Notes: a model not told the origin generated them from the sequence alone. Positions 13,087-49,172 are shown, numbered from the stretch's first letter. The stretch: DNA of 64,000 nt from Candidatus Omnitrophota bacterium (GCA_041649175.1 JBAZNR010000002.1:47149-111148); one strand, 5' to 3'. Numbers and translations: made by a program.

Positions 13087-13773
13087 ATGTGTATCGCTAA
13101 ATATATTCAATCTTCCATCGGCAGAAAGCAAATTGTCGCCGTCACGGGCCTTTGCCTTGTTTTATTTATTATCGGGCATTTGGTGGGGAATTTGTTCATT
13201 TACGGCGGCCCCGATGCCTATAATTGGTACGCCGCAAAATTGATGCATTTAAGGCCAGGCCTTTATATTGTTGAATTCGGCCTGGCCCTTATCTTTTTTA
13301 TCCATATTTATTTTACCAGTGTTTTGGTGGCCGAAAATGTCCGCGCTCGAAAAGTGCGTTATGCCGTTAATCAACCCGTCGGAAAACGTTCTTTGGCAAC
13401 AAAGCTTATGCCGTATACGGCGACGTATTTACTGATCTTTCTTATTTGGCATCTTCTTGACTTTACGTTCACCGACCATAGCGCCCAGAAGTATTTTCTT
13501 AACGGCGTTGATCTGGGGCTTTACGGCGTTGTTTATCATGCTTTTGTCGATCCTTGGCATAGTTTTGGTTATATTGTCGCTATGTTTTGCTTAGGATTTC
13601 ATTTAGCGCACGGCATCCAAAGCACGGTTCAAACATTTGGCTATAATCACCCAACGTTTACGCCGCTTATTCAAAATGTCAGCAATGCTTTCGGTATTTT
13701 GATCGCTTTCGGCTATAGCACGATCCCGATCCTTATCATGGCGCATAACGGACGCTATCATCTTTTAGGATAA
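13087..13773 (+). CDS. sdhC: succinate dehydrogenase/fumarate reductase cytochrome b membrane subunit (single-subunit anchor type)
   Basis: 228 aa, 5 TM helices with conserved His. Immediately upstream of sdhA and sdhB. Confidence 0.75.
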
Positions 13774-13775
13774 TA

Positions 13776-15692
13776 ATGACGACACTGAATTCTAAAATTC
13801 CACCGGGGCCTTTAAAAGATAAATGGACGAAATTTCGTACCAATGTCAAGCTCATTAATCCTGCCAATAAACGTAAATATTCTATTATTGTCGTCGGAAC
13901 CGGTTTAGCCGGCGCTTCGGCGGCGGCATCTTTGGCTGAGCTTGGATACAAGGTCAAAGTTTTTTGTTTGAATGATAGTCCGCGCCGCGCCCATAGCATT
14001 GCCGCGCAAGGCGGAATCAATGCCGCCAAAAATTATCCCAATGACGGCGATAGTGTTGAGCGTTTGTTTTACGATACCATTAAAGGCGGAGATTTTCGCG
14101 CCCGTGAAGCCAATGTGTATCGTTTAGCGGAGATCAGCAATTCCATCATTGACCAATGTGTGGCGCAAGGAGTTCCTTTCGCGCGCGAATATAGCGGTTA
14201 TTTAGAGAATCGTTCTTTCGGCGGGGCACAAGTGTCGCGCACCTTTTACGCGCGCGGACAAACCGGACAACAGCTTTTACTCGGCGCTTACAGCGCTTTG
14301 ATGAAAGAGATCGGCAAAAAAACCATTGAGTTTTATTCGCGCCGGGAAATGCTGGATCTAGTCGTAGTGAACGGCAAGGCGCGCGGCATTGTGGCGCGCG
14401 ATCTTGTATCGGGAAAAATCGAATCTCATAGTGCCGATGCGGTTATTTTAGCCACCGGTGGTTACAGCAATGTGTATTATCTTTCTACAAACGCTAAATC
14501 GCCCAATGTCACTGCCGCTTGGCGCGCGCATAAAAAAGGTGCGTTTTTTGCCAATCCTTGCTATACGCAAATTCATCCCACCTGTATCCCGACGCACGGC
14601 GATTATCAATCCAAATTGACTTTAATGAGCGAAAGCCTTCGTAATGACGGACGCGTCTGGGTTCCTAAGAAAAAAGGTGATGCTCGAAAACCTTCCGACA
14701 TTCCTGAAAATGAACGCGACTATTATTTGGAACGAAAATATCCCAGTTTCGGAAATCTTGTTCCGCGCGACATCGCTTCGCGCGCCGCCAAAGAGCAATG
14801 CGACAAAGGTTTTGGCGTCGGATCGACGGGGCTGGCGGTTTATTTGGATTTCGCCGATTCTATTAAACGGCTGGGAAAAAATGTCATTAAAGAACGCTAC
14901 GGAAATTTGTTCGATATGTATGAAAAGATTATGGGCACCAGCGGCTATGATCAGCCGATGATGATCTATCCGGCTATTCATTACGCCATGGGCGGGCTGT
15001 GGGTGGATTATCATTTGATGAGCAATTTGCCCGGACTTTTTGTTTTAGGCGAGGCGAATTTTTCCGATCATGGCGCCAATCGATTAGGCGCCAGCGCCTT
15101 GATGCAAGGTTTGGCTGATGGATATTTCGTTATTCCCAATACCATTTGCGAATATTTTGCTACCAATTCATTTGAAAAAATAAGTCCCGACGCGCCGGAA
15201 TTTAAGATCTCGGAAAGGGAAGTTTCCGACAAAATTTCTAAACTGCTTTCCATCAAAGGCAAAAAAACCGTCGATGAATTTCATAAAGAATTAGGGCTTT
15301 TGCTTTGGGAAAAATGCGGTATGGCGCGCACGGAACAAGGATTAAAAGATGCGCTTAAAGAAATTGCGCGCATTCGCGATGAATTTTGGAGCAATGTTAA
15401 TGTCTTAGGTTCGGCACAAGATCTTAATCAGGCGCTTGAGCGCGCGGGACGTGTCGCCGACTTTTTAGAATTCGCCGAAACCTTGGTGCGCGATGCGCTT
15501 CATCGAAAGGAATCTTGCGGCGGGCATTTTAGAGAAGAATTTCAAACTCCTGAGGGCGAAGCTAAGCGCGACGATGAGAATTTTTCCTACGTTGCGGCTT
15601 GGGAATTTAAAGGCGTTGGCGCTGAACCTGTTTTGCACAAAGAAATACTGAATTTTGAAGAAGTTCATTTGGCTCAAAGGAACTATAAGTAA
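13776..15692 (+). CDS. sdhA: succinate dehydrogenase/fumarate reductase flavoprotein subunit
   Basis: 638 aa. FAD motif [16 protein letters not shown] active-site region. C-terminal helical domain. Confidence 0.92.
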
Positions 15693-16435
15693 TGAGCAAA
15701 AAATTAAATATTACTCTAAAGATTTGGCGACAGAAAAACGCTGATGCGCCCGGTAAGCTGGAAACGATCAAAGCCGATGCCATTGATTCGGATATGTCGT
15801 TTTTGGAAATGTTAGATGTCGTCAATGAACGCCTCACAAAATCCGGCTTAGAACCGATCGCCTTCGACCATGATTGCCGTGAAGGCATTTGTGGCGCATG
15901 CGGTGCGGTCGTTAACGGCCAAGCACATGGGCCTTTAAGAGGAACAACGCTTTGCCAGCTTCATATGAGACATTTTAAAGACGGTGACACCATTGTCGTT
16001 GAGCCGTGGCGTTCTCGCGCGTTTAAAGTGATCAAAGATTTAGTTGTTGATCGCGGCGCTTTTGATCGCATTATTTCCGCCGGAGGATTCGTTTCTGTGC
16101 GCACGGGAAGCGCGCCTGAAGCTAACACAATTCCTGTCGCGAAAAAGACATCCGACCTTGCCATGGATGCGGCCGCTTGCATTGGCTGTGGCGCTTGTGT
16201 GGCGGCGTGTCCTAACGCTTCGGCGATGCTTTTTGTGGCGGCCAAGGTTTCGCACTTAGCGCTTTTACCGCAAGGGCAAATAGAAAAGAAAGAGCGCGTT
16301 TTGAACATGGTCAAACAAATGGATAAAGAGGGTTTTGGAAATTGCTCCAACGAATACGAATGCGAAGCCGCTTGCCCTAAAGAAATTAGCGTTGCCAATA
16401 TCGCTCGGATGAATAAGGAATTCTTATCCGCGTAG
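15692..16435 (+). CDS. sdhB: succinate dehydrogenase/fumarate reductase iron-sulfur subunit
   Basis: 247 aa. 2Fe-2[10 protein letters not shown]. 4Fe-4S/3Fe-4[13 protein letters not shown] and CEAACP. Confidence 0.9.
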
Positions 16436-16463
16436 CTCCATAGAAGTTGTTTAAGCCATCCTC

Positions 16464-17840
16464 ATGAGCCTATCAATCGAAAAATCCACCATTCAAAAGT
16501 TCGACACTCCGGGTCCGCGTTACACCAGCTATCCGACGGCGCCCGAATGGGATAAAACCTTTGATCCACAAGTTTATATTCAAAAATTAAAAGAGTTCGG
16601 CCGTAGTCAAAAAAGCCTATCGATCTATGTTCACATCCCGTTTTGCCAATCGCTTTGTTATTTTTGCGCTTGCACAGTGGCTATTCGTAAGCAAGAAGAT
16701 AAATTCGGCGATGAATATCTAGATTATTTATGTAAGGAAGTGGATTTGGTGCGTGCCGCGATTGGACGGCGCGCAGCTGTTAAACAGTTCCATTTAGGCG
16801 GTGGAACGCCGACTTTTTTAACTGAAAAACAACTGGAGCGGCTCTATCATAAGATCGCCGAAAATTTTCTCATTGAAAAAGATGCCGAGATCTCCATCGA
16901 AGTTGATCCGCGCACCATTGATGAATCGAAGGTCAAAAAACTTCGCCAACTTGGATTTAACCGCATGTCGATGGGTGTACAGGATTTTAATGAAGAAGTG
17001 CAAAGGCAAGTCAATCGCATTCAACCCTTTGAAATGGTGAAGGAATTTTCCCGTTGGTGTAGGGAATTAAAGTTTGCTTCTATGAATTATGATCTCATTT
17101 ATGGTTTGCCGGGCCAGACAAGAGCAAGTTTTTTTGACACGGTTGAAAAAGTGATCAAGCTTAAACCCGACCGCATCGCGCTTTATAGTTTCGCGCACGT
17201 GCCGTGGCTTAAGAAACATCAGGGAAAATTAGACGAAAAAGCTCTTCCCATAGCGGATGAAAAGTTGGATATTTTTCTGGAGGCCCGTCGGCAATTTCTG
17301 GAAAACGGCTATCAGGCGATCGCTATGGACCATTTTGCGCTTTCAACCGATGAAATGAGTAAGGCCTTTAACAAGGGAACGCTTTACCGTAATTTTATGG
17401 GCTACACCTTAAAGCCTTCCGATGATTTTTTAGGATTTGGCATGTCGGCCATTGGGTTTATCGAAAATACCTTTATTCATAATTTTAAAACCATTCCGGA
17501 TTATTATGCGCCGCTTCAAAAGAATATTCTTCCTGTGGAGGCCGGCAAAGTTTTAAGCGAAGATGATTCAATGCGTCAATGGGCCATTAATTCGCTGATG
17601 TGCCGGTTTAAGTTGGATAAAAATGAGTTTAAAAATGTTTTCGCGCGTGATTTCAATGAATATTTTTCTTTTGAAGCGGCGCACATCTCCCAGTGTATTT
17701 CCGACGGGATTTTAACCGCGCAAGCGGATACGCTTATCGTGACCGATCTAGGAAAAATATTTATCCGTAATGTCTGTATGGGGTTTGACTGGTATTTGCG
17801 TCAAGAAAAAGGGCATAAAAAGTTTTCACGAACAGTTTAA
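16464..17840 (+). CDS. hemN: oxygen-independent coproporphyrinogen III oxidase (radical SAM)
   Basis: 458 aa. HIPFCQSLCYFCAC radical SAM motif plus C-terminal HemN domain. Confidence 0.88.
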   Translation: MSLSIEKSTIQKFDTPGPRYTSYPTAPEWDKTFDPQVYIQKLKEFGRSQKSLSIYVHIPFCQSLCYFCACTVAIRKQEDKFGDEYLDYLCKEVDLVRAAIGRRAAVKQFHLGGGTPTFLTEKQLERLYHKIAENFLIEKDAEISIEVDPRTIDESKVKKLRQLGFNRMSMGVQDFNEEVQRQVNRIQPFEMVKEFSRWCRELKFASMNYDLIYGLPGQTRASFFDTVEKVIKLKPDRIALYSFAHVPWLKKHQGKLDEKALPIADEKLDIFLEARRQFLENGYQAIAMDHFALSTDEMSKAFNKGTLYRNFMGYTLKPSDDFLGFGMSAIGFIENTFIHNFKTIPDYYAPLQKNILPVEAGKVLSEDDSMRQWAINSLMCRFKLDKNEFKNVFARDFNEYFSFEAAHISQCISDGILTAQADTLIVTDLGKIFIRNVCMGFDWYLRQEKGHKKFSRTV

Positions 17841-36738: not shown

Positions 36739-37080
36739 ATGACGAAACGATCGATTCCTTTTATCTTTGTTGTCGCTTTACTTTTTACCGGTGCAATTTC
36801 TTTTGCGCAGCAAGAGGTGACATTGCCGCCGGCCAGTAGCGTCAATCAGCCGGTTCCCGAAGGGATGGAAGCGGTGCAGATCGGCGCCAGCGCGGTGTTG
36901 ATCATCCCCAAAGGAGCTAAAACACGTAAAGTCGGCGCGCAAATCATCGTGGAAGGCACGAAAGAATACATGGCGCGCAAAACTTTCGAGATCGAAGAGC
37001 GCCTTTTAGAGATCGAAAAACGTCAATCAGATATGGCCAAAGATATCGAATCTCTTAAAAACGCCAGAGAAATCAAATGA
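36739..37080 (+). CDS. small secreted hypothetical protein with C-terminal coiled coil
   Basis: Internal ATG 36739 gives MTKRSIPFIFVVALLFTGAISFA, a signal peptide. The 3' end overlaps the hemE start (ATGA). Confidence 0.4.
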   Translation: MTKRSIPFIFVVALLFTGAISFAQQEVTLPPASSVNQPVPEGMEAVQIGASAVLIIPKGAKTRKVGAQIIVEGTKEYMARKTFEIEERLLEIEKRQSDMAKDIESLKNAREIK

Positions 37081-38087
37081 AACCCTTATTTCTTCAAGCT
37101 TTTGAAGGGACGAATAAAACTGTCCCTGTTTGGTTTATGCGCCAGGCCGGGCGCTTCCTGCCGCAATATCGTGCTTTAAAGGAAAAATATTCTTTAAACG
37201 AGATGTTCCAAACGCCTGAATTGGCATCGGAGATCACGGTTCAACCTATTGATGCCTTGGGCGTGGATGCGGCTATTTTATTCGCGGATATCTTAACGCT
37301 TCCTTCGGCAATGGGTTTTAACATCAAATTTTCTAATACTGATGGGCCGGTCATCGATAATTCCTTAGGAAATGCTGCCAATTTCAAAAATATTCACGAT
37401 CTTGACGATCTGTCTTTCGTTGAAAAGACGATCAAACTTGTTAACGCGCGTTTGCCGGACAATATCCCGCTTATTGGTTTTGCGGGCAGTCCTTTTACGG
37501 TTTTAAGCTATTTGGTCGAAGGCGGCTCCTCGCTTAGCTTCGCCAAGCTTTTTAAGTTCTTGGCCGAAGAACCGCAGCAATTCCATCGTCTTATGGAAAT
37601 CTTGACGAAAAATACGATCGATTATCTTAATTTGCAGAAGAAAGCTGGTATTAAAGCATTTCAGATCTTTGATACCTGGGGCGGTATTTTGCGGCCTAGC
37701 GACTACGCCCATTTTGTTTTGCCTTACGTAAAAGAGATCTTTGAAAAAGTTGATTTGCCGTCGATCTATTACGTGAAAAATTGCAGCCATTTGCTGGCGC
37801 TGATGGAGCAAACGGACGCAGATTTCCTATCGGTCTGCCATACGGTGGTTTTAGGGCATAATTCTATTTTGGAGAAAACCCAAAAAGGCGTTCAGGGAAA
37901 TTTGTTTAACGGGATTTTTTATGCGCCGAGCAAAAATCTGGAAAAAGAAGTCCGGGATGTTTTGCTCGGCGCACAACATTATAAAAAATATATTTTTAAT
38001 TTAAGTCACGGCATTTTACCTGACACGGATGTTTCAAAAGTAAAGTCAGTGGTGGAGCTGGTACACAAGTTCAAATGGCAACCGTAA
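37077..38087 (+). CDS. hemE: uroporphyrinogen decarboxylase
   Basis: 336 aa. N-terminal PVWFMRQAGR signature. Confidence 0.92.
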   Translation: MKPLFLQAFEGTNKTVPVWFMRQAGRFLPQYRALKEKYSLNEMFQTPELASEITVQPIDALGVDAAILFADILTLPSAMGFNIKFSNTDGPVIDNSLGNAANFKNIHDLDDLSFVEKTIKLVNARLPDNIPLIGFAGSPFTVLSYLVEGGSSLSFAKLFKFLAEEPQQFHRLMEILTKNTIDYLNLQKKAGIKAFQIFDTWGGILRPSDYAHFVLPYVKEIFEKVDLPSIYYVKNCSHLLALMEQTDADFLSVCHTVVLGHNSILEKTQKGVQGNLFNGIFYAPSKNLEKEVRDVLLGAQHYKKYIFNLSHGILPDTDVSKVKSVVELVHKFKWQP

Positions 38088-38113: not shown

Positions 38114-39475
38114 ATGGCAAAAATCTGTATCATTGGCGGCGGAATAAGCGGTTTGGCAGTTTTGCATTATTTAAAACAGAAATATGCCTCGCGCGCTGAT
38201 ATTGATATTCAATTGTTGGAAAAGAATGATACGCTTGGCGGAACCATTAAAAGCATTCGCCACGATGACGTTTTATTCGAGACCGGCCCCAACGGTTTTC
38301 TTTCCTCGAAGCCCCGCACCTTAGAATTTATCAAAGAATTAGGATTATCGGACGAACTCGTCAGCGCGGATAAACAATCCGAAGAGCGCTTTTTGCTTTC
38401 CAAAGGAAAACTCCACGCGCTTCCTAAAAATCCGGCCACTTTTTTGAAATTCAAACTTCTATCTTCGTTAGAAAAACTTCGTATTCCCTTGGAATATTTT
38501 ATCGCCAAAGGAGCTGATCCGGTTGAAAGCGTTTATGATTTCGGAAAAAGGCGTTTGGGAAAACGTTTTGCGCAAGTTTTTCTGGACCCGATGTGCGCCG
38601 GGATCTTCGGCGGGGAAGCGCAAAATCTAAATTTGAAACTCGCCTTTCCGCGTATTTATGAGATCGAACAAACCTACGGTTCTTTGATCAAGGGGATGAT
38701 CGCTTTAAAAAAGAAAAAAAGCGAAAAGCATTACAATGTTGAGCCCAAAGGAACCTTAACTTCCTTTCGCCGCGGAATGTCGCAGCTCATTGAGGTTTTG
38801 AGCGCGCGCTATCAAAATTCCATTGTGACGGGTTGCGAAATCGATTTTATTAATAAGGTTGGCGGCAGTTTTGTTATTCGCGCAAAAAACCAGAATCTTT
38901 TAGCTGACGAAGTTTATATGTCCGTACCCGCCGCGGCCGCGGCGAAGATGGCCAATTCTTTAAGCCCGTCTTTGGCGGGCAGTTTGCGTTGTGTTTTTTA
39001 CGCGCCGATGACGGTTGCGGGGTTGGTGTACAGGCGTTCGGATTTTGAAATCCTGCCATTTGGTTTTGGTTATTTAACTTCTTCTTTGGAACGTCGCGAT
39101 ATTTTGGGGGTTTTATTCGATAGCAATATTTTCCCCAATCGCGCCGGAAGTGAATATTTTTCCTGCCGGGTGATGATGGGCGGAGCGAGAAATCCGTCGA
39201 TGATCAGTGAGTCAAAAGAAAAGTTGCTCAACCTGGCCAAAGAGGAAATAAAGAATATTCTTAAAGTCCGCCAAGAACCGGTCAAAGAATTTTTTGCAAG
39301 TTTTCCCAGCGCCATTCCTCAATACGATAAAGCGTATGTTCAGGTCAGGGAAAACATCATCAATGAATCGTTAAAAATAAGCCGCTTACATCTTGCCGCT
39401 AATTATTTGGGCGGGATTTCTCTTAATGACTGCGTTGAAAATGCGTATCAAACGGTTCAACAAAGTAAGTTTTAA
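38114..39475 (+). CDS. hemY: protoporphyrinogen/coproporphyrinogen oxidase (HemY-type FAD amine-oxidase fold)
   Basis: 453 aa. FAD dinucleotide motif ICIIGGGISGLAV plus C-terminal HemY-type motifs. Confidence 0.82.
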   Translation: MAKICIIGGGISGLAVLHYLKQKYASRADIDIQLLEKNDTLGGTIKSIRHDDVLFETGPNGFLSSKPRTLEFIKELGLSDELVSADKQSEERFLLSKGKLHALPKNPATFLKFKLLSSLEKLRIPLEYFIAKGADPVESVYDFGKRRLGKRFAQVFLDPMCAGIFGGEAQNLNLKLAFPRIYEIEQTYGSLIKGMIALKKKKSEKHYNVEPKGTLTSFRRGMSQLIEVLSARYQNSIVTGCEIDFINKVGGSFVIRAKNQNLLADEVYMSVPAAAAAKMANSLSPSLAGSLRCVFYAPMTVAGLVYRRSDFEILPFGFGYLTSSLERRDILGVLFDSNIFPNRAGSEYFSCRVMMGGARNPSMISESKEKLLNLAKEEIKNILKVRQEPVKEFFASFPSAIPQYDKAYVQVRENIINESLKISRLHLAANYLGGISLNDCVENAYQTVQQSKF

Positions 39476-39538: not shown

Positions 39539-40234
39539 ATGAAACCACATTTCCTTATTATTCTATTCTTTGTCTTGATCGCAGCCTGTGAACCGGCCGC
39601 GCCTAAAGAACGCCGCTATACGGAAATAACTGTTTCTCCGGAAATTTCCATGGCGCAGGATCCGCACGCGTTTTTAAACGAAATGCCTGAAGATCCGCAC
39701 GCGTTTCTCAAAAACATGCCGCAGGATCAAGATCCGCACGCTTTTTTAAATCAAATGCCGATGGGCGATCTGCCGGTAGCTGATCCTAAGCAAGATGATC
39801 TAAGCTGGGATGTTCCCGACGGCTGGAGTGAAAAACCGGCCAGCGGTATGCGGCTTGCGACATTGGTTGATGCGGATACAAAAGATCCTATTGATTGCAG
39901 CATTGTTTCCTTAGGCGGACAGGCCGGCGGCCTTCAGGCTAATGTCCAGCGTTGGATGAAACAGATCAATGTCTCGGTGTCTTCACCGGAAGAATTAGAT
40001 AAATTTTTAGCGAAAAGTGAAACGGTAAAAGGCGCAGAATTATCCGCGAGCGTCATTGACCTTACTTTATTGCAATCCTCGGGTGATGCGGCTTTACCCT
40101 CAATGATCGCCGCGATCGTTACCACAAACGAAAAAACTTATTTTGTCAAAATGGCCGGATCAAAATCGGCTGTCGAAAAAAACAAAAGCGCATTTACAGC
40201 GCTTCTTAAATCCCTCAAGCTCAAAGCAAAGTAG
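39539..40234 (+). CDS. lipoprotein with three tandem DPHAFL(N/K)xMP repeats
   Basis: 231 aa. Lipobox LIAAC. Repeats DPHAFLNEMPE / DPHAFLKNMPQDQ / DPHAFLNQMPM are encoded by 33-39 nt tandem DNA repeats at 39659-39763. Confidence 0.55.
   Translation: MKPHFLIILFFVLIAACEPAAPKERRYTEITVSPEISMAQDPHAFLNEMPEDPHAFLKNMPQDQDPHAFLNQMPMGDLPVADPKQDDLSWDVPDGWSEKPASGMRLATLVDADTKDPIDCSIVSLGGQAGGLQANVQRWMKQINVSVSSPEELDKFLAKSETVKGAELSASVIDLTLLQSSGDAALPSMIAAIVTTNEKTYFVKMAGSKSAVEKNKSAFTALLKSLKLKAK
39659..39763 (+). repeat. intragenic tandem DNA repeat (3 units, period 33-39 nt, GATCCGCACGC(G/T)TTT...ATGCC)
   Basis: Units start at 39659, 39692 and 39731. They encode the DPHAFL peptide repeats. Confidence 0.7.
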
Positions 40235-40239
40235 TTTCT

Positions 40240-41364
40240 ATGTTGGACAAAATTAAATCACTGCGCATCATGCGAACATTAAGTTCTGTTAAGTGGGCGG
40301 TTTTCTGCCTGCTGGCGCTTTTTATTTTAGTTTTTGCCGGGACAGTTTATCAGGCCGAATACGGGCTTTACTTAGCCCAAGAACGGTTTTTTAATTCCTT
40401 TGTGTTTTTGTTGTTCGGATTTTTGCCGTTTCCGGGCGCTCAGTTGGTTTTATGGATCTTGTTCGTTAACCTAACCGCCGCGGCCATTACGCGTTTTCAA
40501 TACAAATGGTCCAAAATCGGATTAACGGTCATTCATGGCGGTATATTATTGTTTTTTATTTCGGCGTTCGTCACATTTTATTATTCTTTTGAATCAAATC
40601 TGACTTTAAATGAAGGTGAGTCGTCCAACGTTTCGGCGGCCTATCACAATTGGGAAATATCGGCCTGGGAAAAAGCCACAGGAAAGAAAAGCGTTATCGC
40701 TTATGATGCCGATCATTTAAATTCAAACGCGGTTTTGCGCTTTGATGATCTTGGTTTTTCGCTGACGGTAAAAAATTATTATCCGAATAGCGCCGCTTTT
40801 AGCGAATCGGATAAAAAAGATGCTGTGCGAAATAGTTCGGGGATCAGTATTTTAGAAGAGCGTCCCGTTGATCATGATCCGGTAAAAAATATTCCAAGCG
40901 GCAAGTTTGTTTTAACACAGGCGAATTCGCCAAGCCAAGATATTATTTTGTTTGGCGGCGACATGTTACCGACGCAGATCACCGCTGGCGCAAAGCACTA
41001 TGAACTTGTGCTTCGCCGGAAGCGATTTGAATTGCCGTTCGCTGTCAAGTTAGTCGACTTTCGCATGACCAAACATCCCAATACCGAAATGGCAAAAAGC
41101 TTTGAAAGCACGGTTGAGGTTCAAACGCCTTTAGCGTCGCGGGAGGTCATAATTTCTATGAATAATCCTTTGAGGCATAATGATTTTACTTTTTATCAGG
41201 CGTCGTATTCTATCGGGCGTAACGGCGAAGAAACATCAACCTTAGCCGTTGTCAAAAATAAAGGGCGTGTTTTGCCGTATATCGCAACGATCGTTACATT
41301 TTTAGGATTAGTTTTTCATTTTTCTGTTTCTTTGTATCGCATGCGCGCAAAGGATCCGGCATGA
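40240..41364 (+). CDS. ccsB: cytochrome c biogenesis protein CcsB/ResB (system II), short form
   Basis: 374 aa. N-terminal TM helices, periplasmic domain, C-terminal TM and FYQASYS-like ResB motif. Translationally coupled to ccsA (ATGA overlap). Confidence 0.78.
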   Translation: MLDKIKSLRIMRTLSSVKWAVFCLLALFILVFAGTVYQAEYGLYLAQERFFNSFVFLLFGFLPFPGAQLVLWILFVNLTAAAITRFQYKWSKIGLTVIHGGILLFFISAFVTFYYSFESNLTLNEGESSNVSAAYHNWEISAWEKATGKKSVIAYDADHLNSNAVLRFDDLGFSLTVKNYYPNSAAFSESDKKDAVRNSSGISILEERPVDHDPVKNIPSGKFVLTQANSPSQDIILFGGDMLPTQITAGAKHYELVLRRKRFELPFAVKLVDFRMTKHPNTEMAKSFESTVEVQTPLASREVIISMNNPLRHNDFTFYQASYSIGRNGEETSTLAVVKNKGRVLPYIATIVTFLGLVFHFSVSLYRMRAKDPA

Positions 41365-43238
41365 AAAAAAATATTATCGCGTGTGTTTTGACCGTGGTGG
41401 CTGTTCTTAGCTTCTCTGTGTTTGCCAGCGCCGAAGAAGGGAAATTTCCGCTTCAGCAGTTCGGACGCATGGCAATTTTAGAAAGCGGACGGATCAAGCC
41501 GATCGACACATACGCGCGCCATGTTTTATTGCAATTCTCCGGAAAGACAACCTACGAGCGAAAACCTGCCTTAGCTTGGTTGGCGCGGGTTATCTTTACG
41601 CCGACACAAACGCGTGATGACAAAGTCTTCCTTATTAATAATGCCGAGATCGCACATGCTTTGGGTGTTACGGCGGAATCAAAACGCCGGTATAGTTTTG
41701 CGCAGTTGGAAAAAGGGTTTCATCAGCTTGAAATGTTGGCGGCTTCCGCTAACCAGATTGAACCAAAATCACGCAGTGTTGTTGAAAACGAGATCCTTCG
41801 CACTTTTGAAAATCTGGTGCTTTACTTAGGCCTGACGGACAGTTTCAGTTTTGCCGTACCTCACGTTGATTTTTCCATTTCCTCTGGTAATGTTGTGCGG
41901 ATGCTGCAACTTCCGGAAACACAAAAAGAATTTACTTTTCTTGAGATCGCGCTTCATTCGGATTTGATCCGTCCGGTGGCAGATAGTTTAACCGCAAAGA
42001 ATTCTTCTGATTGGACCGAGGATGAGCGGGAGATCTTCCGGATTTTGTCGAATATGTATCAATGGTCGCAGTATTTTCGTCATCTTCCGCTGATGGTTAT
42101 TCCGTCGGAAGGAAACCACGAACAAAATTGGCTAAGCCCCTGGGATGCGATGGCCCAAGAATTTCACAGCGAAAAAATCAAAAAAGAGATCATATTTTTA
42201 GCCGAGTTGACGCGTGGCTATCAGGACAAACAGCCGATCGTCTTTGATCTGGCGGCGAAGAAATTTTCTGACTCGGTGCGGCAGCGCACCAGTGATGTGC
42301 GTAGCATGCGTTATATTGACTTGGAATTATCATATAATCGCGCCGGATATTTTGTTTTTTCTCATATCTTTTATTGGTTATCGTTTTTGGCGTTTATTGC
42401 TTTTGCGGTTAATGGAAAGCTGAATTTACGCTTCGCGAGTTTCATGTTTTTGATCCTAGGATTTATTCCGCATACAGCGGGTTTGATTTTCCGTATCATT
42501 ATTCTGGGGCGTCCGCCGGTCACCAGCCTCTATGAAACCTTTGTTTTTGTTGCCTGGATGAGCGTTTTGCTCGGCATCATTATCGAGAAAGTGAATCGCA
42601 AGTGGCTCGGGAACATTGTCGGCAGTATTGCCGGTGTTTTGCTTTTGATCATTGCCGGAAAATTCAGCAGTGACGGGGACACCATGAAAATGTTAGTCGC
42701 TGTTTTAAATTCTAATTTTTGGTTAGGCATTCATGTTCCTACCATTACCATGGGCTATGCGGCGTGTTGTGTCGCCGGGATCATTGGGCACGCCTACATT
42801 ATTCAAGCGATCGCGCATCCGCAAGATACCGCACAGCTGCGTGCGACCTACAAAACACTTCTCATGTCTTTAGGGCTTGGTTTGACATTGTCTTTTTTTG
42901 GAACGATGTTAGGCGGCATTTGGGCGGATCAATCCTGGGGAAGGTTTTGGGGCTGGGACCCCAAAGAGAATGGCGCGCTTTTGATCGTTATCTGGTGCAT
43001 TATTATCTTTCACGCGCGGATTGCGAATATGTTAGACGAGTTAGGCGTGGCGGCGGCCAGCATTTTTGGCATTGTTATTGTGGCGTGGGCCTGGTTTGGC
43101 GTCAATTTATTAAGCGTTGGCCTTCATTCTTATGGGTTTACATCCGGTGTTGCGGCAGGGCTTATTGGCTATGTGGCGGCACAAGTCGTATTTTTGATCG
43201 CAGGTGTTTTCTGGGCAAGAAAAAGGTTAAAAATTTAG
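41361..43238 (+). CDS. ccsA: cytochrome c biogenesis protein CcsA/ResC (system II heme exporter/lyase) with a roughly 330-aa N-terminal periplasmic extension
   Basis: 625 aa. WWD domain WGRFWGWDPKENGALL. Conserved His residues in TM helices. Signal peptide plus a large soluble N-domain. Confidence 0.85.
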   Translation: MKKNIIACVLTVVAVLSFSVFASAEEGKFPLQQFGRMAILESGRIKPIDTYARHVLLQFSGKTTYERKPALAWLARVIFTPTQTRDDKVFLINNAEIAHALGVTAESKRRYSFAQLEKGFHQLEMLAASANQIEPKSRSVVENEILRTFENLVLYLGLTDSFSFAVPHVDFSISSGNVVRMLQLPETQKEFTFLEIALHSDLIRPVADSLTAKNSSDWTEDEREIFRILSNMYQWSQYFRHLPLMVIPSEGNHEQNWLSPWDAMAQEFHSEKIKKEIIFLAELTRGYQDKQPIVFDLAAKKFSDSVRQRTSDVRSMRYIDLELSYNRAGYFVFSHIFYWLSFLAFIAFAVNGKLNLRFASFMFLILGFIPHTAGLIFRIIILGRPPVTSLYETFVFVAWMSVLLGIIIEKVNRKWLGNIVGSIAGVLLLIIAGKFSSDGDTMKMLVAVLNSNFWLGIHVPTITMGYAACCVAGIIGHAYIIQAIAHPQDTAQLRATYKTLLMSLGLGLTLSFFGTMLGGIWADQSWGRFWGWDPKENGALLIVIWCIIIFHARIANMLDELGVAAASIFGIVIVAWAWFGVNLLSVGLHSYGFTSGVAAGLIGYVAAQVVFLIAGVFWARKRLKI

Positions 43239-43291: not shown

Positions 43292-44356
43292 ATGCAGATC
43301 GTTACACTCGGAATTAACCACAAAACAGCCCCTATTGAAGTCCGCGAGAAATTTTGCTGCTCACCACAACAGCAAGAATTGCTTTTAAGCGAACTGCGCA
43401 ATAATCCTTCTGTCGCCGAAGCCTTCATCCTATCCACTTGTAATCGTCTCGAAATTTACGCGTACACCGTTAGCGCCCAGGATGCTCAGACGATCCTTAA
43501 AACGCTTTTCTCGGTCAAAAAGATCAAGTTTTCAGATATTTTGCAAAAACACTTTTACATTTATGCGGATGAAGTGGCGGTGGATCATTTCTTGCGTGTC
43601 GCGGCAGGCTTGGATTCTTTAGTGTTGGGTGAAAAGCAGATCTTAGGCCAGGTTAAGGAAGGTGTTAAGCTTGCGGCATCAAAAGGGATGCTGGGAAAAT
43701 ATTTTAACATTTTAACCAATATTGCCGTGCGCACCGGGAAAAAAGCCCAAAGTGAAACGCAGATAAGCTATGGCGGCTCGTCCATTAGTTGGGCGGCGGT
43801 TGCTTTAGGTGAAAAGATCTTAGGAAGTTTTTCCGAAAAGTCTGTCCTGATGATCGGCGCTGGAAAAATGGGCGAATTGACTGCGCAGCAAATTAAAAAT
43901 AAAGGCGCTAAAAATTTGTTTTTTATGAACCGTACGCAATCTTGTGCTAGCGCCTTGGCATCTCAGTGTCGCGGGCAAGAGGCGGCATTTTGCGATATGG
44001 AAAGAATTCTTTCAGAAATAGACATTTGTTTTTGTTCGGTGGGCGCGCCGCATTTTATTTTGGAAAAAAGCACGGTTTTTAAAGCGATGCAAAAACGAGA
44101 GAGTCGTCCGCTTGTTTTTATCGATATTTCCGTTCCGCGCAACATCGACCCGGCTTGCGGCGAGGTGAGCGGTGTTGATCTTTATCATGTGGACGACCTT
44201 GAACGCGTCGTGGATGAAAATATTCAACGTCGGACAGCGGCCGTTGATTTGGTTGAGAAAATTATCCGGCAAAAACATGCCGAGTTTTACCGCAAGATCG
44301 AGAAAATAACATCGCGGCAGTACAGCGATTATTACGAGCCCGCACGTGTTAAGTAA
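43292..44356 (+). CDS. hemA: glutamyl-tRNA reductase
   Basis: 354 aa. MQIVTLGINHKTAPIEVREKF N-terminus, catalytic Cys in LSTCNRLE, NADPH-binding GAGKMG. Confidence 0.9.
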   Translation: MQIVTLGINHKTAPIEVREKFCCSPQQQELLLSELRNNPSVAEAFILSTCNRLEIYAYTVSAQDAQTILKTLFSVKKIKFSDILQKHFYIYADEVAVDHFLRVAAGLDSLVLGEKQILGQVKEGVKLAASKGMLGKYFNILTNIAVRTGKKAQSETQISYGGSSISWAAVALGEKILGSFSEKSVLMIGAGKMGELTAQQIKNKGAKNLFFMNRTQSCASALASQCRGQEAAFCDMERILSEIDICFCSVGAPHFILEKSTVFKAMQKRESRPLVFIDISVPRNIDPACGEVSGVDLYHVDDLERVVDENIQRRTAAVDLVEKIIRQKHAEFYRKIEKITSRQYSDYYEPARVK

Positions 44357-44368
44357 AAAAGTTCTTAA

Positions 44369-45001
44369 TTGATGATGGATTTCTTTCGGCGGCTGATATC
44401 CGCAATAAGCGCGTTTGTGCATTTTGTTATTCCTCCGCGCGAGTGGCGATTTGTTGTTATCGTTCTTTTGGGAATTTTTGCTGGATTGGGTTTTTATACA
44501 CTGCGGATCTCGAATGCGGTTTCTTATCTTTCAGATCAGCCCGAAACGTGCATGAATTGCCACGTGATGTCACCGGAATATGCGACGTGGGCGCATGGCA
44601 GCCACCGCCAGCGGGCGGTTTGTACCGATTGCCATGTTCCGCATGATAACGTGATCCATAAATATTTTTTTAAAGCAAAAGACGGATTGCGGCACGCGAC
44701 GATCTTTACAATGCGTACTGAGCCGCAGGTGATCGTGATGAAGCCGGACGGAGTTACGGCGGTGCAGGAAAATTGCATTCGTTGCCACGCAAATTTACTT
44801 GATGGTGTTTCGGCTCGTGATGTGACCGGAAAGAATTATTTACACGGAGAGGGTAAGCTATGCTGGGATTGTCATCGGGAAACGCCTCATGGAACGGTTC
44901 GTAGCTTGTCATCTGTGCCGTATGCGCGTGTTCCTCAATTACCCAGCGTTATTCCGTCGTGGTTAGATGAATTCTTGCGAAAATCTCAAAATATAAAATA
45001 A
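44369..45001 (+). CDS. nrfH: cytochrome c nitrite reductase small subunit NrfH (NapC/NirT-family tetraheme quinol dehydrogenase)
   Basis: 210 aa. N-terminal TM anchor. Four CxxCH motifs: CMNCH, CTDCH, CIRCH, CWDCH. Confidence 0.9.
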   Translation: MMMDFFRRLISAISAFVHFVIPPREWRFVVIVLLGIFAGLGFYTLRISNAVSYLSDQPETCMNCHVMSPEYATWAHGSHRQRAVCTDCHVPHDNVIHKYFFKAKDGLRHATIFTMRTEPQVIVMKPDGVTAVQENCIRCHANLLDGVSARDVTGKNYLHGEGKLCWDCHRETPHGTVRSLSSVPYARVPQLPSVIPSWLDEFLRKSQNIK

Positions 45002-45010
45002 AGGGCGGCT

Positions 45011-46483
45011 ATGAAAAAAATCAATGATTTGATCAGCGAAAAACCTTGGATCGGATGGGTTATTTTCTTGGTGACGATTGCGGTTGTTTTCGCGCTCGGG
45101 CTTTTGGCATCCTCCATTATGGAGCGGCGCACCGAAGCTAAGCTCGCGTTTCAAGTTGCAAAGCCGATTCCCGAATGGGAACCGCGTAATGAAATTTGGG
45201 GTGAAAATTTTCCTCGTCAATTTGAGCGTTATCAAAGTACGAAGGAAAGCGATTTTGCCAGCCGTCACGGCGGAAGCGTTGAAATCGACAGTTTAGAACG
45301 CGATCCACGTATGATCGTTTTATGGGCGGGATATGCGTTCGCGCGCGACTATAATCAAGGCCGAGGACATTATAATGCCATTACAGATATTCGAAAAACT
45401 TTAAGAACCGGTGTCGCTCAGCCCGGAACATGCTGGACATGTAAAAGCACCGATGTTCCGCGCCTCATGAAAGATTTGGGTGTGGCACAATTTTACAAAA
45501 AGAAATGGTCGGATCTTGGCTCCGAAGTTGTGAATCCTATCGGCTGTCAGGATTGTCATGATCCCAAAACGATGAATTTGCGCATCACACGCCCGGCCTT
45601 GGCGGAAGCGCTTGAGCGGCAAGGAAAAGATGTAAAAAAAGCAACGCATCAAGAAATGCGTTCGCTTGTTTGCGCGCAGTGTCATGTGGAATATTATTTT
45701 AAAGGTGATGAAAAATATTTAACCTTTCCTTGGGATCAGGGACTGACCGCTGAAAATATTGAAAAATATTACGACCAGTACGATCATGTGGATTGGGTTC
45801 ATGCGCTTAGCAAAACGCCAATGCTAAAAGCTCAACATCCGGATTACGAATTATGGGCGTTAGGCGTGCATGCTCAGCGCGGTGTTGCGTGCGCCGATTG
45901 TCATATGCCGTATCGCAGTGAAGGCGGCGTGAAATTCACTGATCACAAAATTCAAAGCCCTCTTAATAATATCGCGAATTCTTGCCAAGTTTGTCATCGG
46001 GAAAGCGAAGAAACGCTTCGTCAGAATGTTTTTGAACGCCAGGATAAGGTTTTAGAATTGCGGCTCCAGGCGGAAGATGCGTTGGTGAACGCGCATATCG
46101 AGGCTAAAGCGGCTTGGGAAAGCGGCGCGACCGAAGAAGAGATGAAGCCGATCTTAAAGCTTATTCGCCAGGCGCAGTGGCGTTGGGATTATGCGACCGC
46201 AAGCCATGGCGCGAGTTTTCACGCGCCTTTGGAGGTTTCGCGGATCTTAGGCGGAGCGACGCAAAAAGCGGGTGAGGCGCGTGTCTTATTGGCGCGTGTC
46301 TTAGCGGCGCACGGAATTCAAACGCCGATTGCAATGCCGGATATTTCTACAAAAGAAAAGGCGCAATCGTTTATTGGCCTGGACATGAGTAAGCTTAAAG
46401 CTGAAAAAGAAGAATTTATGAAAAATGTTTTGCCCGAGTGGGACCAAAAAGCCAAAGAACGGCAAGAAAAGATGACGCCATAA
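45011..46483 (+). CDS. nrfA: ammonia-forming cytochrome c nitrite reductase, pentaheme catalytic subunit NrfA
   Basis: 490 aa. Active-site CxxCK (CWTCK) plus four CxxCH motifs (CQDCH, CAQCH, CADCH, CQVCH). Signal-anchor N-terminus. Confidence 0.92.
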   Translation: MKKINDLISEKPWIGWVIFLVTIAVVFALGLLASSIMERRTEAKLAFQVAKPIPEWEPRNEIWGENFPRQFERYQSTKESDFASRHGGSVEIDSLERDPRMIVLWAGYAFARDYNQGRGHYNAITDIRKTLRTGVAQPGTCWTCKSTDVPRLMKDLGVAQFYKKKWSDLGSEVVNPIGCQDCHDPKTMNLRITRPALAEALERQGKDVKKATHQEMRSLVCAQCHVEYYFKGDEKYLTFPWDQGLTAENIEKYYDQYDHVDWVHALSKTPMLKAQHPDYELWALGVHAQRGVACADCHMPYRSEGGVKFTDHKIQSPLNNIANSCQVCHRESEETLRQNVFERQDKVLELRLQAEDALVNAHIEAKAAWESGATEEEMKPILKLIRQAQWRWDYATASHGASFHAPLEVSRILGGATQKAGEARVLLARVLAAHGIQTPIAMPDISTKEKAQSFIGLDMSKLKAEKEEFMKNVLPEWDQKAKERQEKMTP

Positions 46484-47814
46484 TGTTGCCAGAAATTATT
46501 TACCAATATCCGTATTTTTTTATTGGCGTAATTGCTATTTTAGTCAATATTCCGATGGGTTATCTTCGGGAAGGCTGCGCAAAATTCTCGCTGGCGTGGT
46601 TTTTCTGGATCCATGCCTCTATTCCGATCCTTATCTATTTGCGTTGGACGCTTCACACGTCAAAGCTTTTTATCCCTGTTGCCATTATGTTTGCCATCGT
46701 CGGGCAGATCGTCGGTAGCCGTTATCGGCGCAAAAAAATGCCGCAGGCCGAGCATGACGCTCTCGAGCAAATCTCTGATCTGCGTCTTATGAAAAATGCC
46801 GGTTGTTCGGCGGGGGATGCGGATATTCAAGTTGTCTTGCTTAACATGGGCGGGCCGCAGGAAAATAAAGATGTTCCGGATTTCTTAAAAAGGCTTTTTT
46901 TGGATGTGCGGCTTATCCGATTTCCGCTGGCGTTTTTATTACAGCCTTTGTTCGCAAATTTACTTGTATTCTTTAGAGCCAAAGCCGCGCAACATCGTTA
47001 TCAGTTGATCGGCGGCGGAAGCCCGATTCTAAGATCAACCATGCAGCAGGCGGCGGCGCTGCAGGCTGAATTGAAGAAACGCGGGCGAAATTTGAATGTC
47101 ACGATCTGTTTTAACTATAGCTATCCGCTTCCATCCGATACAGTGGAAGAAATAAAGCTTTCAAATAAGAAATTTGTTTTACCGGTGAGTTTGTATCCGC
47201 ATTATTCCGAGGCAACGACCGGTTCCAGCGTTTATTTCCTACAAAAGGAAGCGGCACAGAAAATTCCGGATGTTCGGTTTTTAGATGCGGATTCTTATTA
47301 TTTAAACGATTCCTACATTCAGGCATTTGCCGATCGTATCCGTCAGCAAATAAAGCCGAATGAATCTTTAAGTGATTTTTATCTTTTGTTTTCGGCGCAC
47401 GGGTTACCGCTTTATTTTCTAAAGGAAGGCGATGTTTATCCTTTTCAAATCGCTCAAACGGTCGCTAAAGTTATAAATTCTTTAGGCCGGCAAGACGCGT
47501 GGAGCATTTCCTATCAAAGCGCGGTTGGGCCGCTTGTTTGGTTAAAGCCATCGACGGAAAGCATGATTTCCGCTTTGGCTAAGCGCGGTGTGAAGAAGCT
47601 TCTGGTTGTTCCTATTTCTTTTGTGACGGATCATATCGAAACTCTTTGCGAGATCGATATAGAATATCGAACAATGGCTAAAGAATTAGGGATCAAAGAT
47701 TTCCGGATGAGCAAGGCTTTAGAGTCGCATCCGGGATTTATATCCGCTTTAGCGGATAGTGCGGAATCGGCGTTACGTTATCAACAAAAACAACGCGAGT
47801 GTTCTCGCGTTTGA
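46483..47814 (+). CDS. hemH: ferrochelatase with a roughly 100-aa N-terminal polytopic membrane extension
   Basis: ATG at 46483 overlaps the nrfA stop (TAATG). N-terminus has 3 predicted TM helices, followed by the ferrochelatase signature VVLLNMGGPQ and a C-terminal HIETL region. Confidence 0.85.
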   Translation: MLPEIIYQYPYFFIGVIAILVNIPMGYLREGCAKFSLAWFFWIHASIPILIYLRWTLHTSKLFIPVAIMFAIVGQIVGSRYRRKKMPQAEHDALEQISDLRLMKNAGCSAGDADIQVVLLNMGGPQENKDVPDFLKRLFLDVRLIRFPLAFLLQPLFANLLVFFRAKAAQHRYQLIGGGSPILRSTMQQAAALQAELKKRGRNLNVTICFNYSYPLPSDTVEEIKLSNKKFVLPVSLYPHYSEATTGSSVYFLQKEAAQKIPDVRFLDADSYYLNDSYIQAFADRIRQQIKPNESLSDFYLLFSAHGLPLYFLKEGDVYPFQIAQTVAKVINSLGRQDAWSISYQSAVGPLVWLKPSTESMISALAKRGVKKLLVVPISFVTDHIETLCEIDIEYRTMAKELGIKDFRMSKALESHPGFISALADSAESALRYQQKQRECSRV

Positions 47815-47826
47815 AATAAAGGAGCT

Positions 47827-48147
47827 GTGATGAAGCCAATCAATGTCGCGTTTTTAATTTACGGGATCCTCATGTTTGTGGGCGGATTTATCGGTTTCGC
47901 CAAAGCCGGAAGCAAAATGTCTTTGATCATGGGCATTGTTTCCGGGCTTATTATTATTCTCGGCGTTTTAATTTCCTTGAACAATCCGCAAACCGGATAC
48001 CTTGTTTTAACAGTGACAACAACGTTGTTGTCGGCTGTTTTTATAAGCCGTTTGATCAAAACACAAAGTTTTATGCCGTCGGGAATGCTCTTGATCTTTA
48101 GCCTCGCGGCCTTAGCAGTTTGCGTTGTTCAATTAATAAAAAAATAG
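47827..48147 (+). CDS. TMEM14-family small membrane protein (4 TM)
   Basis: 106 aa. VGGFIGFAKAGSKMSLIMG matches the TMEM14 signature GGxxGYxKxGSxxSLxxG. RBS AAGGAG. Directly after hemH. Confidence 0.5.
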   Translation: MMKPINVAFLIYGILMFVGGFIGFAKAGSKMSLIMGIVSGLIIILGVLISLNNPQTGYLVLTVTTTLLSAVFISRLIKTQSFMPSGMLLIFSLAALAVCVVQLIKK

Positions 48148-48365
48148 TGACTCCTAAGATTGATAAAAGTAATTTTCAGCATGTTTCCATCGGCCTTAAT
48201 GTCGCCACCGGAATGTTCGTTTTTTCCTATTTGGGATTTTTAGCCGATAAAAAATGGGGCGGGCAAGCCTGGACATTGGTAGGGATTCTCTTAGGATTGG
48301 TGTATAGCGCTTATGAGATCTGGAAACTTATTCGTCAGCTGAACGATCAGGATAAAAAAACGTAA
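48120..48365 (+). CDS. atpI: AtpI/AtpZ-like small membrane protein preceding the F-ATPase genes (PF09527-like)
   Basis: 81 aa (or from GTG 48147). Two TM helices. ...GLNVATGMFVFSYLGFLADKKWG... resembles the ATPase_gene1 family. Immediately upstream of atpB. Confidence 0.45.
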   Translation: MRCSINKKIVTPKIDKSNFQHVSIGLNVATGMFVFSYLGFLADKKWGGQAWTLVGILLGLVYSAYEIWKLIRQLNDQDKKT

Positions 48366-49144: not shown

Positions 49145-49172
49145 GAATTACTTTACTAATTTTCGAGGTTCA
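49145..49172 (+). promoter_or_regulatory. possible internal promoter (TTTACT-16bp-TATAAT) ahead of atpE
   Basis: -10 TATAAT at 49167-49172. Weak -35 TTTACT at 49145-49150. Located in the 105-nt atpB-atpE gap. Confidence 0.3.

Follow-up and report, generated by a model that had tools for sequence, protein, structure and literature searches.

A ferrochelatase fused to a predicted three-helix membrane domain is encoded beside a TMEM14 family protein in Candidatus Omnitrophota

Membrane-attached ferrochelatases are known in plastids and cyanobacteria, where the enzyme carries a C-terminal chlorophyll a/b-binding (CAB) helix, and in mitochondria, where binding is peripheral. To our knowledge, the action of the small membrane protein TMEM14C in animal haem synthesis is unsettled between transporter, chaperone, and scaffold, and a simple prokaryotic system has so far been lacking. 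TMEM14C is implicated in the handling of protoporphyrinogen IX in animals and has been found in the complex of the ferrochelatase FECH (PMC7140478). PufQ of Rhodobacter is a small membrane protein that binds ferrochelatase and steers porphyrin flux (PMC5725709). In this study, we analysed a 64-kb stretch of DNA (the window) from a Candidatus Omnitrophota bacterium, in which hemH encodes a ferrochelatase fused to an N-terminal domain of three transmembrane helices (the 3-TM domain) and is directly followed by a gene of the TMEM14 family. Gene calls on the source contig (ENA k141_2245591, 659 kb) were used, and coordinates are those of the window. The unit hemA-(3TM::hemH)-TMEM14 is conserved across Omnitrophota, and the gene pair hints at a haem link of TMEM14 without proving it. 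An original prediction had suggested that the two genes at 46483-48147 are a membrane porphyrin hand-off module. The coordinates and gene content it gave were correct; the hand-off itself appears only partly supported by the analysis.

The TMEM14 (UPF0136) gene lies at 47830-48147 on the plus strand. PF03647 (Tmemb_14) matched residues 10-98 of its product over profile positions 3-91 of 92 (E = 1.1e-21; 77.7 bits, cut-off 24.8), a strongly positive search that bears out the family signature seen beforehand. Tmemb_14 was the sole Pfam match of the protein, and neither PF03899 (AtpI) nor PF09527 (AtpZ) was found in it. Hydropathy gave the four hydrophobic segments that had been predicted. The predicted length of 106 residues corresponds to a GTG start at 47827; the ATG at 47830, five bases past the Shine-Dalgarno sequence AGGAG (47820-47824, plus strand, read from the sequence within the spacer between the two genes), is preferred and gives 105 residues. 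The exact 105-residue protein is named 'TMEM14 family protein [Candidatus Omnitrophota bacterium]' at the NCBI. This database name is correct, and the ferrochelatase and TMEM14 families are themselves already known. The best sequence match in the PDB was human TMEM14C (2LOS; E = 6.9e-7), with the motifs GG.IG..KAGS..SL and FMP.G in common. Residues G18, G22, K25, S28, R74, M82, P83, and G85 were invariant in the TMEM14 alignment.

The hemH gene (46483-47814, plus strand) was identified with Pfam and NCBIfam and encodes a protein of 443 residues composed of the 3-TM domain, a linker, and the ferrochelatase. The catalytic domain (residues 117-443; 46831-47814, plus strand) was matched by PF00762 over residues 117-429 (profile positions 4-315 of 317; E = 4.1e-94; 315.5 bits, cut-off 27) and by TIGR00109 from residue 115 onward (278 bits, cut-off 124.6). 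The SAHG.P histidine and the DHIET acidic motif are both present. H306, D383, H384, and E386, which we take from established family knowledge to be the catalytic residues, were invariant in an alignment of eight fusions, and HemH is predicted to be catalytically intact. Among PDB sequences, human FECH was the best match (204 bits), followed by the yeast enzyme (154 bits) and CpfC of B. subtilis (88 bits), and no member of the ChdC family was found among the called genes of the window. Judged by its sequence, HemH is a protoporphyrin (mitochondrial-like) ferrochelatase and not a coproporphyrin enzyme of the CpfC type. The Cys cluster for [2Fe-2S] of the metazoan type, with three C-terminal Cys residues and one internal Cys, is absent, and the protein ends in ...YQQKQRECSRV with a single Cys. 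Pfam detected no C-terminal CAB helix.

The N-terminal extension comprises the three-helix membrane domain (residues 1-85; 46483-46737, plus strand), as delimited by phmmer, the family alignment, and an AlphaFold2 model, and a basic juxtamembrane stretch with a flexible linker (residues 86-116; 46738-46830, plus strand), as delimited by the alignment of fusions and the predicted local distance difference test (pLDDT). Neither Pfam (at E up to 1) nor NCBIfam contained a model matching residues 1-116. Hydropathy placed three hydrophobic segments at approximately residues 10-27, 35-53, and 60-78, followed by the basic sequence SRYRRKK. The AlphaFold2 model of residues 1-96, built on a 28-sequence family alignment, reached a pLDDT of 95.5, with helices at residues 10-30, 37-57 (with a kink at 45), and 61-85. 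The three membrane helices that had been proposed in front of the ferrochelatase were thus recovered. The model of full-length HemH, with a shallower alignment and without inter-domain information, had a pLDDT of 82.5. In this model, residues 91-110 or so fell to 61-65, and this low confidence is consistent with a flexible tether within a linker of approximately 25 residues. From the positive-inside rule, we infer an N-terminus on the outside and a catalytic domain in the cytoplasm.

The extension is a real part of hemH, as had been claimed. The same in-frame 3TM::hemH fusion occurs in 13 independent loci, in which the identity of the N-terminal domain to that of the window ranges from approximately 20% to 67%. 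The linker motif EQIsDL (E-x-I-x-D-L, including I97) is conserved in the fused proteins and absent from standalone 3-TM proteins. Ten invariant residues of the 3-TM family were defined from 28 diverse bacterial members, and all ten are retained in the window: N22, G26, R29, W39, H44, P48, R54, G74, Q75, and G78. Several of them, including His, Arg, Asn, and Gln, are polar and lie within helices in the membrane.

The arrangement was compared with the described systems. Like animal TMEM14C, the small protein carries PF03647, four hydrophobic helices, and the motifs GG.IG..KAGS and FMP.G, and each of the two small proteins has a membrane-facing ferrochelatase of the protoporphyrin type as its partner. 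In contrast to the animal pair, the association in Omnitrophota is a genetic one, between operon neighbours. The Omnitrophota enzyme also differs in having no [2Fe-2S] cluster, in carrying its own 3-TM anchor, and in needing no import step, and its TMEM14 partner is linked equally to the atp operon. The plastid and cyanobacterial FC2 with its CAB domain is similar in that a ferrochelatase is joined by a linker to a helix module from a small membrane protein family. However, the three helices of the Omnitrophota module lie at the N-terminus and bear no relation to the CAB/light-harvesting complex family (no Pfam match), and the organism is a non-phototroph without any chlorophyll context. PufQ shares with TMEM14 the genetic linkage of a small membrane protein to tetrapyrrole genes. 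The two have no sequence relationship, and PufQ acts at the branch point of haem and bacteriochlorophyll, which is absent here.

For the survey of gene neighbourhoods, one genome per species was scanned with a TMEM14 alignment, which yielded 41 loci, 18 of the Omnitrophota type and 23 from other phyla. The 18 loci were combined with the window and six further contigs into an Omnitrophota-type set of 25, some of which are labelled 'Planctomycetales' in their records. The gene upstream of TMEM14 was a fused 3TM::hemH in 13 of the 25 loci (directly in 12; with a toxin-antitoxin pair in between in L004), a standalone 3-TM gene in five (overlapping TMEM14 in three), and hemA in six. In the last locus, L006, a different, unfused, Cys-rich hemH lies upstream, and an antisense response-regulator gene intervenes; hence, it was not counted as an operon pair. 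Conversely, TMEM14 lies downstream of every fused hemH (13/13). The hemH-TMEM14 adjacency, for which the original prediction had proposed a survey of genomes, therefore recurs in 13 independent loci, the proteins of which are approximately 40-65% identical. The gene pair inserted in L004 (9344-9878) resembles a nucleotidyltransferase/HepT-type toxin-antitoxin system by inspection of the sequence and is the sole interruption between hemH and TMEM14 in the 13 fusion loci.

The pairing also persists where the downstream gene order is disrupted. TMEM14 is followed by genes other than atp in L004, L010, and L016, and three or more unrelated genes separate it from atp in L126 and L127. In all five loci, TMEM14 remains paired with hemH. 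Insertions were rarer on the hemH side (1/13) than on the atp side (6/24). In five other loci, which lack the catalytic domain, a standalone 3-TM gene of 85-126 residues (L014:7829-8086, L015:9619-9999, L019:9627-9989, L023:6-209, and L024:179-514) takes the position that hemH has in other genomes; it is located directly 5' of TMEM14 and in front of atpB, with an overlap with TMEM14 in L014, L015, and L019. These standalone copies form a sister clade to the fused domains. Because the adjacency persists without the catalytic domain, the 3-TM family is tied to TMEM14 independently of HemH; because it is fused, it is tied to ferrochelatase.

A word-indexed homology search with residues 1-116 of HemH returned 3 matches, and an exhaustive phmmer search was needed to uncover the 3-TM family. 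Against 1.84 billion representatives, phmmer gave 472 matches at E ≤ 1e-3, the best down to 7e-28. Three groups can be distinguished: ferrochelatase fusions, which are few; standalone proteins of 85-95 residues, which are many; and proteins of 200-620 residues in which the domain is C-terminal. Sources of the standalone proteins include cultured species of Geomonas (for example, WP_216512263.1) as well as Kiritimatiellaceae and Deferrimicrobiota, and all of these proteins are annotated as 'hypothetical'. No relative of the family was found among solved structures by fold or sequence, and a plant homologue likewise had none among PDB sequences. The possibility that the 3-TM domain is a diverged TMEM14 was rejected, with an hhalign probability of 0.2%.

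Standalone 3-TM genes were also sampled from metagenomes with a narrow alignment, which captured one subclade of 80 loci (L046-L125; Deferrimicrobiota-like, high in guanine-cytosine (GC) content). One recurring gene lies directly downstream in this subclade and is likely a homologue of DciA, as in L002. In L002 (1195-2072), the DciA homologue is downstream, a DUF3343/Se_S_carrier gene lies upstream on the opposite strand, and no haem genes are nearby.

The long eukaryotic homologues represent a conserved 'uncharacterized protein' of approximately 350 residues (772 matches), with every land-plant lineage among the matches as well as green algae. The homologues of the window segment 46483-46737 (plus strand) were P0088 and P0192-P0309 from land plants and P0075-P0186 from algae. 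No Pfam domain was found in the plant and algal proteins. They contain three invariant Cys-Pro (CP) sites, RCPFLRNI, GNCPIAKSY, and RCPPAIVA, and the 3-TM domain is preceded by these ALAS-like motifs. RCPFL is also the motif of the ALAS1 presequence. Among 120 plant proteins, the median CP count was 3 per protein versus 0.5 expected, and 54% of all Cys residues precede Pro. CP is a classic transient haem-binding or regulatory motif (PMC10377097). The pattern in the plant and algal homologues resembles haem-regulatory motifs and may be an extra hint of a haem link.

We tentatively favour, at somewhat below an even chance, a membrane-tethered unit for terminal haem synthesis in which TMEM14 is an accessory. 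The 3-TM module, with its ancestral residues intact, would hold the ferrochelatase at the cytoplasmic face of the membrane. The mouth of the active site would face the membrane, where protoporphyrinogen and protoporphyrin IX derived from HemY would partition and where the haem exporter CcsBA would sit. TMEM14, presumably co-expressed with HemH, and the intact 3-TM domain would be small partners in the membrane by which the hydrophobic tetrapyrrole is held or passed on, either as substrate in or as haem out; a similar role has been proposed for animal TMEM14C in the haem metabolon that contains FECH. The haem product would feed NrfHA, with its nine haems, and the adjacent cytochrome c maturation proteins of System II. 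The case for a haem role of TMEM14 is a chain: the fusion ties the 3-TM domain to ferrochelatase, adjacency ties the 3-TM domain to TMEM14, and the animal data tie TMEM14C to FECH. A bolder extension is that the 3-TM family handles haem or porphyrin from bacteria to plants and that 3-TM domain, TMEM14, and ferrochelatase constitute a bacterial 'terminal haem metabolon' that passes haem to CcsBA; we regard this as improbable on present evidence.

Several observations weigh against the haem-synthesis unit. Outside Omnitrophota, none of the 23 TMEM14 loci (from Obscuribacterales/Melainabacteria, Verrucomicrobiota, Chlamydiae, and Acidobacteriota) has hemH, hemA, or atp within 10 kb. TMEM14 keeps non-haem neighbours in these phyla; hence, a conserved adjacency can be merely historical. 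Within the Omnitrophota-type set, hemA or a standalone 3-TM gene takes the place of an adjacent hemH in 11 loci. Of the 24 loci that extend far enough, 19 have the atp operon directly after TMEM14 or one gene on, and the neighbour counts on both sides place TMEM14 between haem genes and the atp operon phylum-wide. The genomic signal is limited to a single uncultured phylum, and the atp operon confounds it. Near the standalone 3-TM genes sampled from metagenomes, hemH, TMEM14, and atp were found in 0 of the 80 loci. Among 11 aligned fusions, four have lost His44 and Arg54 (L004:7879-9204, L010:8648-9970, L017:8683-9963, and L127:3686-5062), and the domain of L017 also lacks Asn22; in these lineages, the degenerate 3-TM domain may now serve simply as an anchor. 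Finally, the haem enzymes of bacteria all work at the cytoplasmic face, and trans-membrane transport of the kind proposed for TMEM14C is therefore not needed here.

The alternative that survives best, although we consider it somewhat unlikely, holds that the 3-TM domain is a mere anchor, that TMEM14 is a general carrier of lipophilic compounds or fatty acids with no specific tie to haem, and that the gene order is inherited phylum synteny. FAX1, a fatty-acid exporter, belongs to the TMEM14 family (PMC4344464), and FAX1 to FAX7 of plants share both the Pfam family and the four-helix layout with the Omnitrophota protein. FAX1 differs in that it serves fatty-acid export from plastids, and the Omnitrophota gene is not flanked by lipid-metabolism genes. 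The carrier view also draws on the TMEM14 neighbours of other phyla, which are unrelated to haem. In eight Verrucomicrobiota loci (L033-L035, L039-L041, L043, and L044), TMEM14 lies directly upstream of an hrpB-like helicase gene, an adjacency that is opaque. The 80 standalone loci without haem context and the invariant residues lost in four fusions fit it as well. However, the window protein and most fusions keep the ten invariant residues, which a plain anchor would not need, and the fusions possess a conserved linker motif of their own. The 3-TM and TMEM14 genes are adjacent even without hemH, in five loci and with an overlap in three. Moreover, the gene order is kept at a protein identity of no more than approximately 40-50%, and insertions and deletions accumulate everywhere except at the hemH-TMEM14 junction. 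In four Obscuribacterales loci (L009, L011, L012, and L020), an sdhCAB-like operon lies 170-255 bp downstream of TMEM14, a conserved neighbourhood that likewise shows no evident haem link.

A second alternative, which we judge unlikely, is that TMEM14, along with the standalone 3-TM gene in the loci that have one, leads the F-type ATP synthase operon in the manner of atpI or atpZ, and that it adjoins hemH only because the haem cluster borders on atp in this phylum. As in the AtpI/AtpZ leaders, a small hydrophobic protein is encoded directly upstream of atpB and is probably co-transcribed with it. The atp operon is the next unit downstream in the 19 of 24 loci noted above, the distance to atpB is 4-60 nucleotides in many loci, and the stop codon of TMEM14 overlaps the atpZ-like start in the window. 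In addition, TMEM14 precedes atp in the 11 loci without an adjacent hemH, two of which (L015 and L019) have no hemA within 10 kb upstream. Against this stand the five loci in which TMEM14 remains with hemH while atp is absent or separated by unrelated genes. Unlike the AtpI/AtpZ leaders, to which it has no sequence similarity, TMEM14 matches no atp family, and a genuine PF09527 gene is already there besides it. Furthermore, no TMEM14 locus outside Omnitrophota adjoins an atp operon.

The last alternative, an annotation artefact in which the extension is a separate small open reading frame and hemH starts further downstream, was raised by the original prediction itself and describes the five sister-lineage loci L014, L015, L019, L023, and L024, which have a separate 3-TM frame of 85-126 residues at the same position, but it is very improbable for the window, where the domains are fused, because the same in-frame fusion and its fusion-specific linker motif recur in 13 loci, neither the window nor any of the 12 other loci has a stop codon between the domains, the linker is conserved in the same frame, the internal Met86 and Met104 have no preceding Shine-Dalgarno sequence, and independent gene calls give products of 434-458 residues, with the same 443 residues on the source contig.

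The hemH and TMEM14 genes form the end of a co-directional 11-gene haem and cytochrome c cluster on the plus strand. The cluster includes hemE (37077-38087; Pfam URO-D), a HemY-type amino oxidase gene (38114-39475; Pfam Amino_oxidase), a gene for a predicted lipoprotein of 231 residues (39539-40234; a gene call without Pfam match), resB (40240-41364; Pfam ResB), and ccsB (41361-43238; Pfam Cytochrom_C_asm; TIGR03144 at 135.9 bits, under the cut-off of 187.6 bits). These are followed by hemA for glutamyl-tRNA reductase (43292-44356; TIGR01035, 365 bits), nrfH for a tetrahaem cytochrome c (44369-45001), and nrfA for a pentahaem cytochrome c nitrite reductase (45011-46483); the last two were identified by NCBIfam matches (TIGR03153/NF008339 for nrfH and nrfA). 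nrfH and nrfA, whose products consume haem, separate hemA from hemH in the window, and hemA is the constant upstream partner in relatives. Downstream of TMEM14, the first gene that can be assigned to the F-type ATP synthase operon encodes an AtpZ-like small membrane protein (48147-48365, plus strand; PF09527, E = 3.8e-10) and is followed by atpB, E, F, H, A, G, and D from 48365 on the same strand, as given by the gene calls. The window thus holds hemE, hemN, the HemY-type oxidase gene, hemA, resB/ccsB, and nrfHA, a pathway context in favour of the haem-synthesis unit. Because hemE, hemN, hemY, and hemH are present, a protoporphyrin-dependent haem branch is encoded.

The genes from nrfH to atpB are tightly packed, with overlaps of 1 nucleotide or gaps of at most 15 nucleotides; the hemA-nrfH gap is 12 nucleotides. 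The nrfA stop and the hemH start overlap in TAATG, with the hemH ATG at 46483. The hemH-TMEM14 spacer is 15 nucleotides, and a separate ribosome-binding site serves TMEM14. One base is common to the TMEM14 stop codon and the GTG start of the atpZ-like gene. A scan of 43-50 kb revealed no intrinsic terminator with a U-tract at either TMEM14 junction, and all plus-strand candidates were intragenic. The best promoter-like sites in the same scan were at 43227, before hemA, and at 49152, before atpE. Owing to the tight packing and the lack of a U-tract terminator at the TMEM14 junctions, co-transcription across the stretch from nrfH to atpB is likely. A hairpin with a perfect 8-bp stem, AACGCGAG-TGTT-CTCGCGTT, occupies 47792-47811, in the final hemH codons and just 5' of the TMEM14 ribosome-binding site. 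Since no U-tract follows on the plus strand, the hairpin does not qualify as a canonical terminator and could instead affect RNA stability or processing.

Three further features of the window were observed. The lipoprotein encoded between hemY and resB has a signal peptide that ends in ...LIAAC and three tandem DPHAFL(N/K)xMP repeats. At 13087-17840, sdhC-like, sdhA, and sdhB genes are directly followed by hemN, the gene for the oxygen-independent coproporphyrinogen oxidase, which makes this the second haem-synthesis gene attached to a respiratory-complex operon in the window. The segment 20000-27500 has a low GC content (0.37-0.38 versus approximately 0.45 elsewhere) and contains genes for an N6/N4 DNA methyltransferase, a DEAD/ResIII helicase, and an SduA_C (Shedu-type) protein, so that a defence island of foreign origin is probable.

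In the searchable literature, we found no N-terminal fusion of a bacterial ferrochelatase to the unnamed 3-TM family, no conserved bacterial hemH-TMEM14 gene pair, and no link of the 3-TM family to the conserved CP-motif plant protein. If the gene pair reflects only an inherited order in front of atp, the finding shrinks to an unusual but unremarkable anchored ferrochelatase. As a conserved bacterial hemH-TMEM14 pair, it would be independent evidence from evolution that TMEM14 and ferrochelatase are functionally linked, and with only three small proteins or domains to reconstitute in E. coli, the locus would bring the TMEM14C question within reach of experiment. The Rosetta-stone fusion would be a first clue to the role of the unnamed 3-TM family, which extends to cultured Geomonas and to all sampled land-plant lineages. 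If the metabolon reading is true, the locus would provide the first functional handle on the mechanism of TMEM14C and on an uncharacterised plant gene family.

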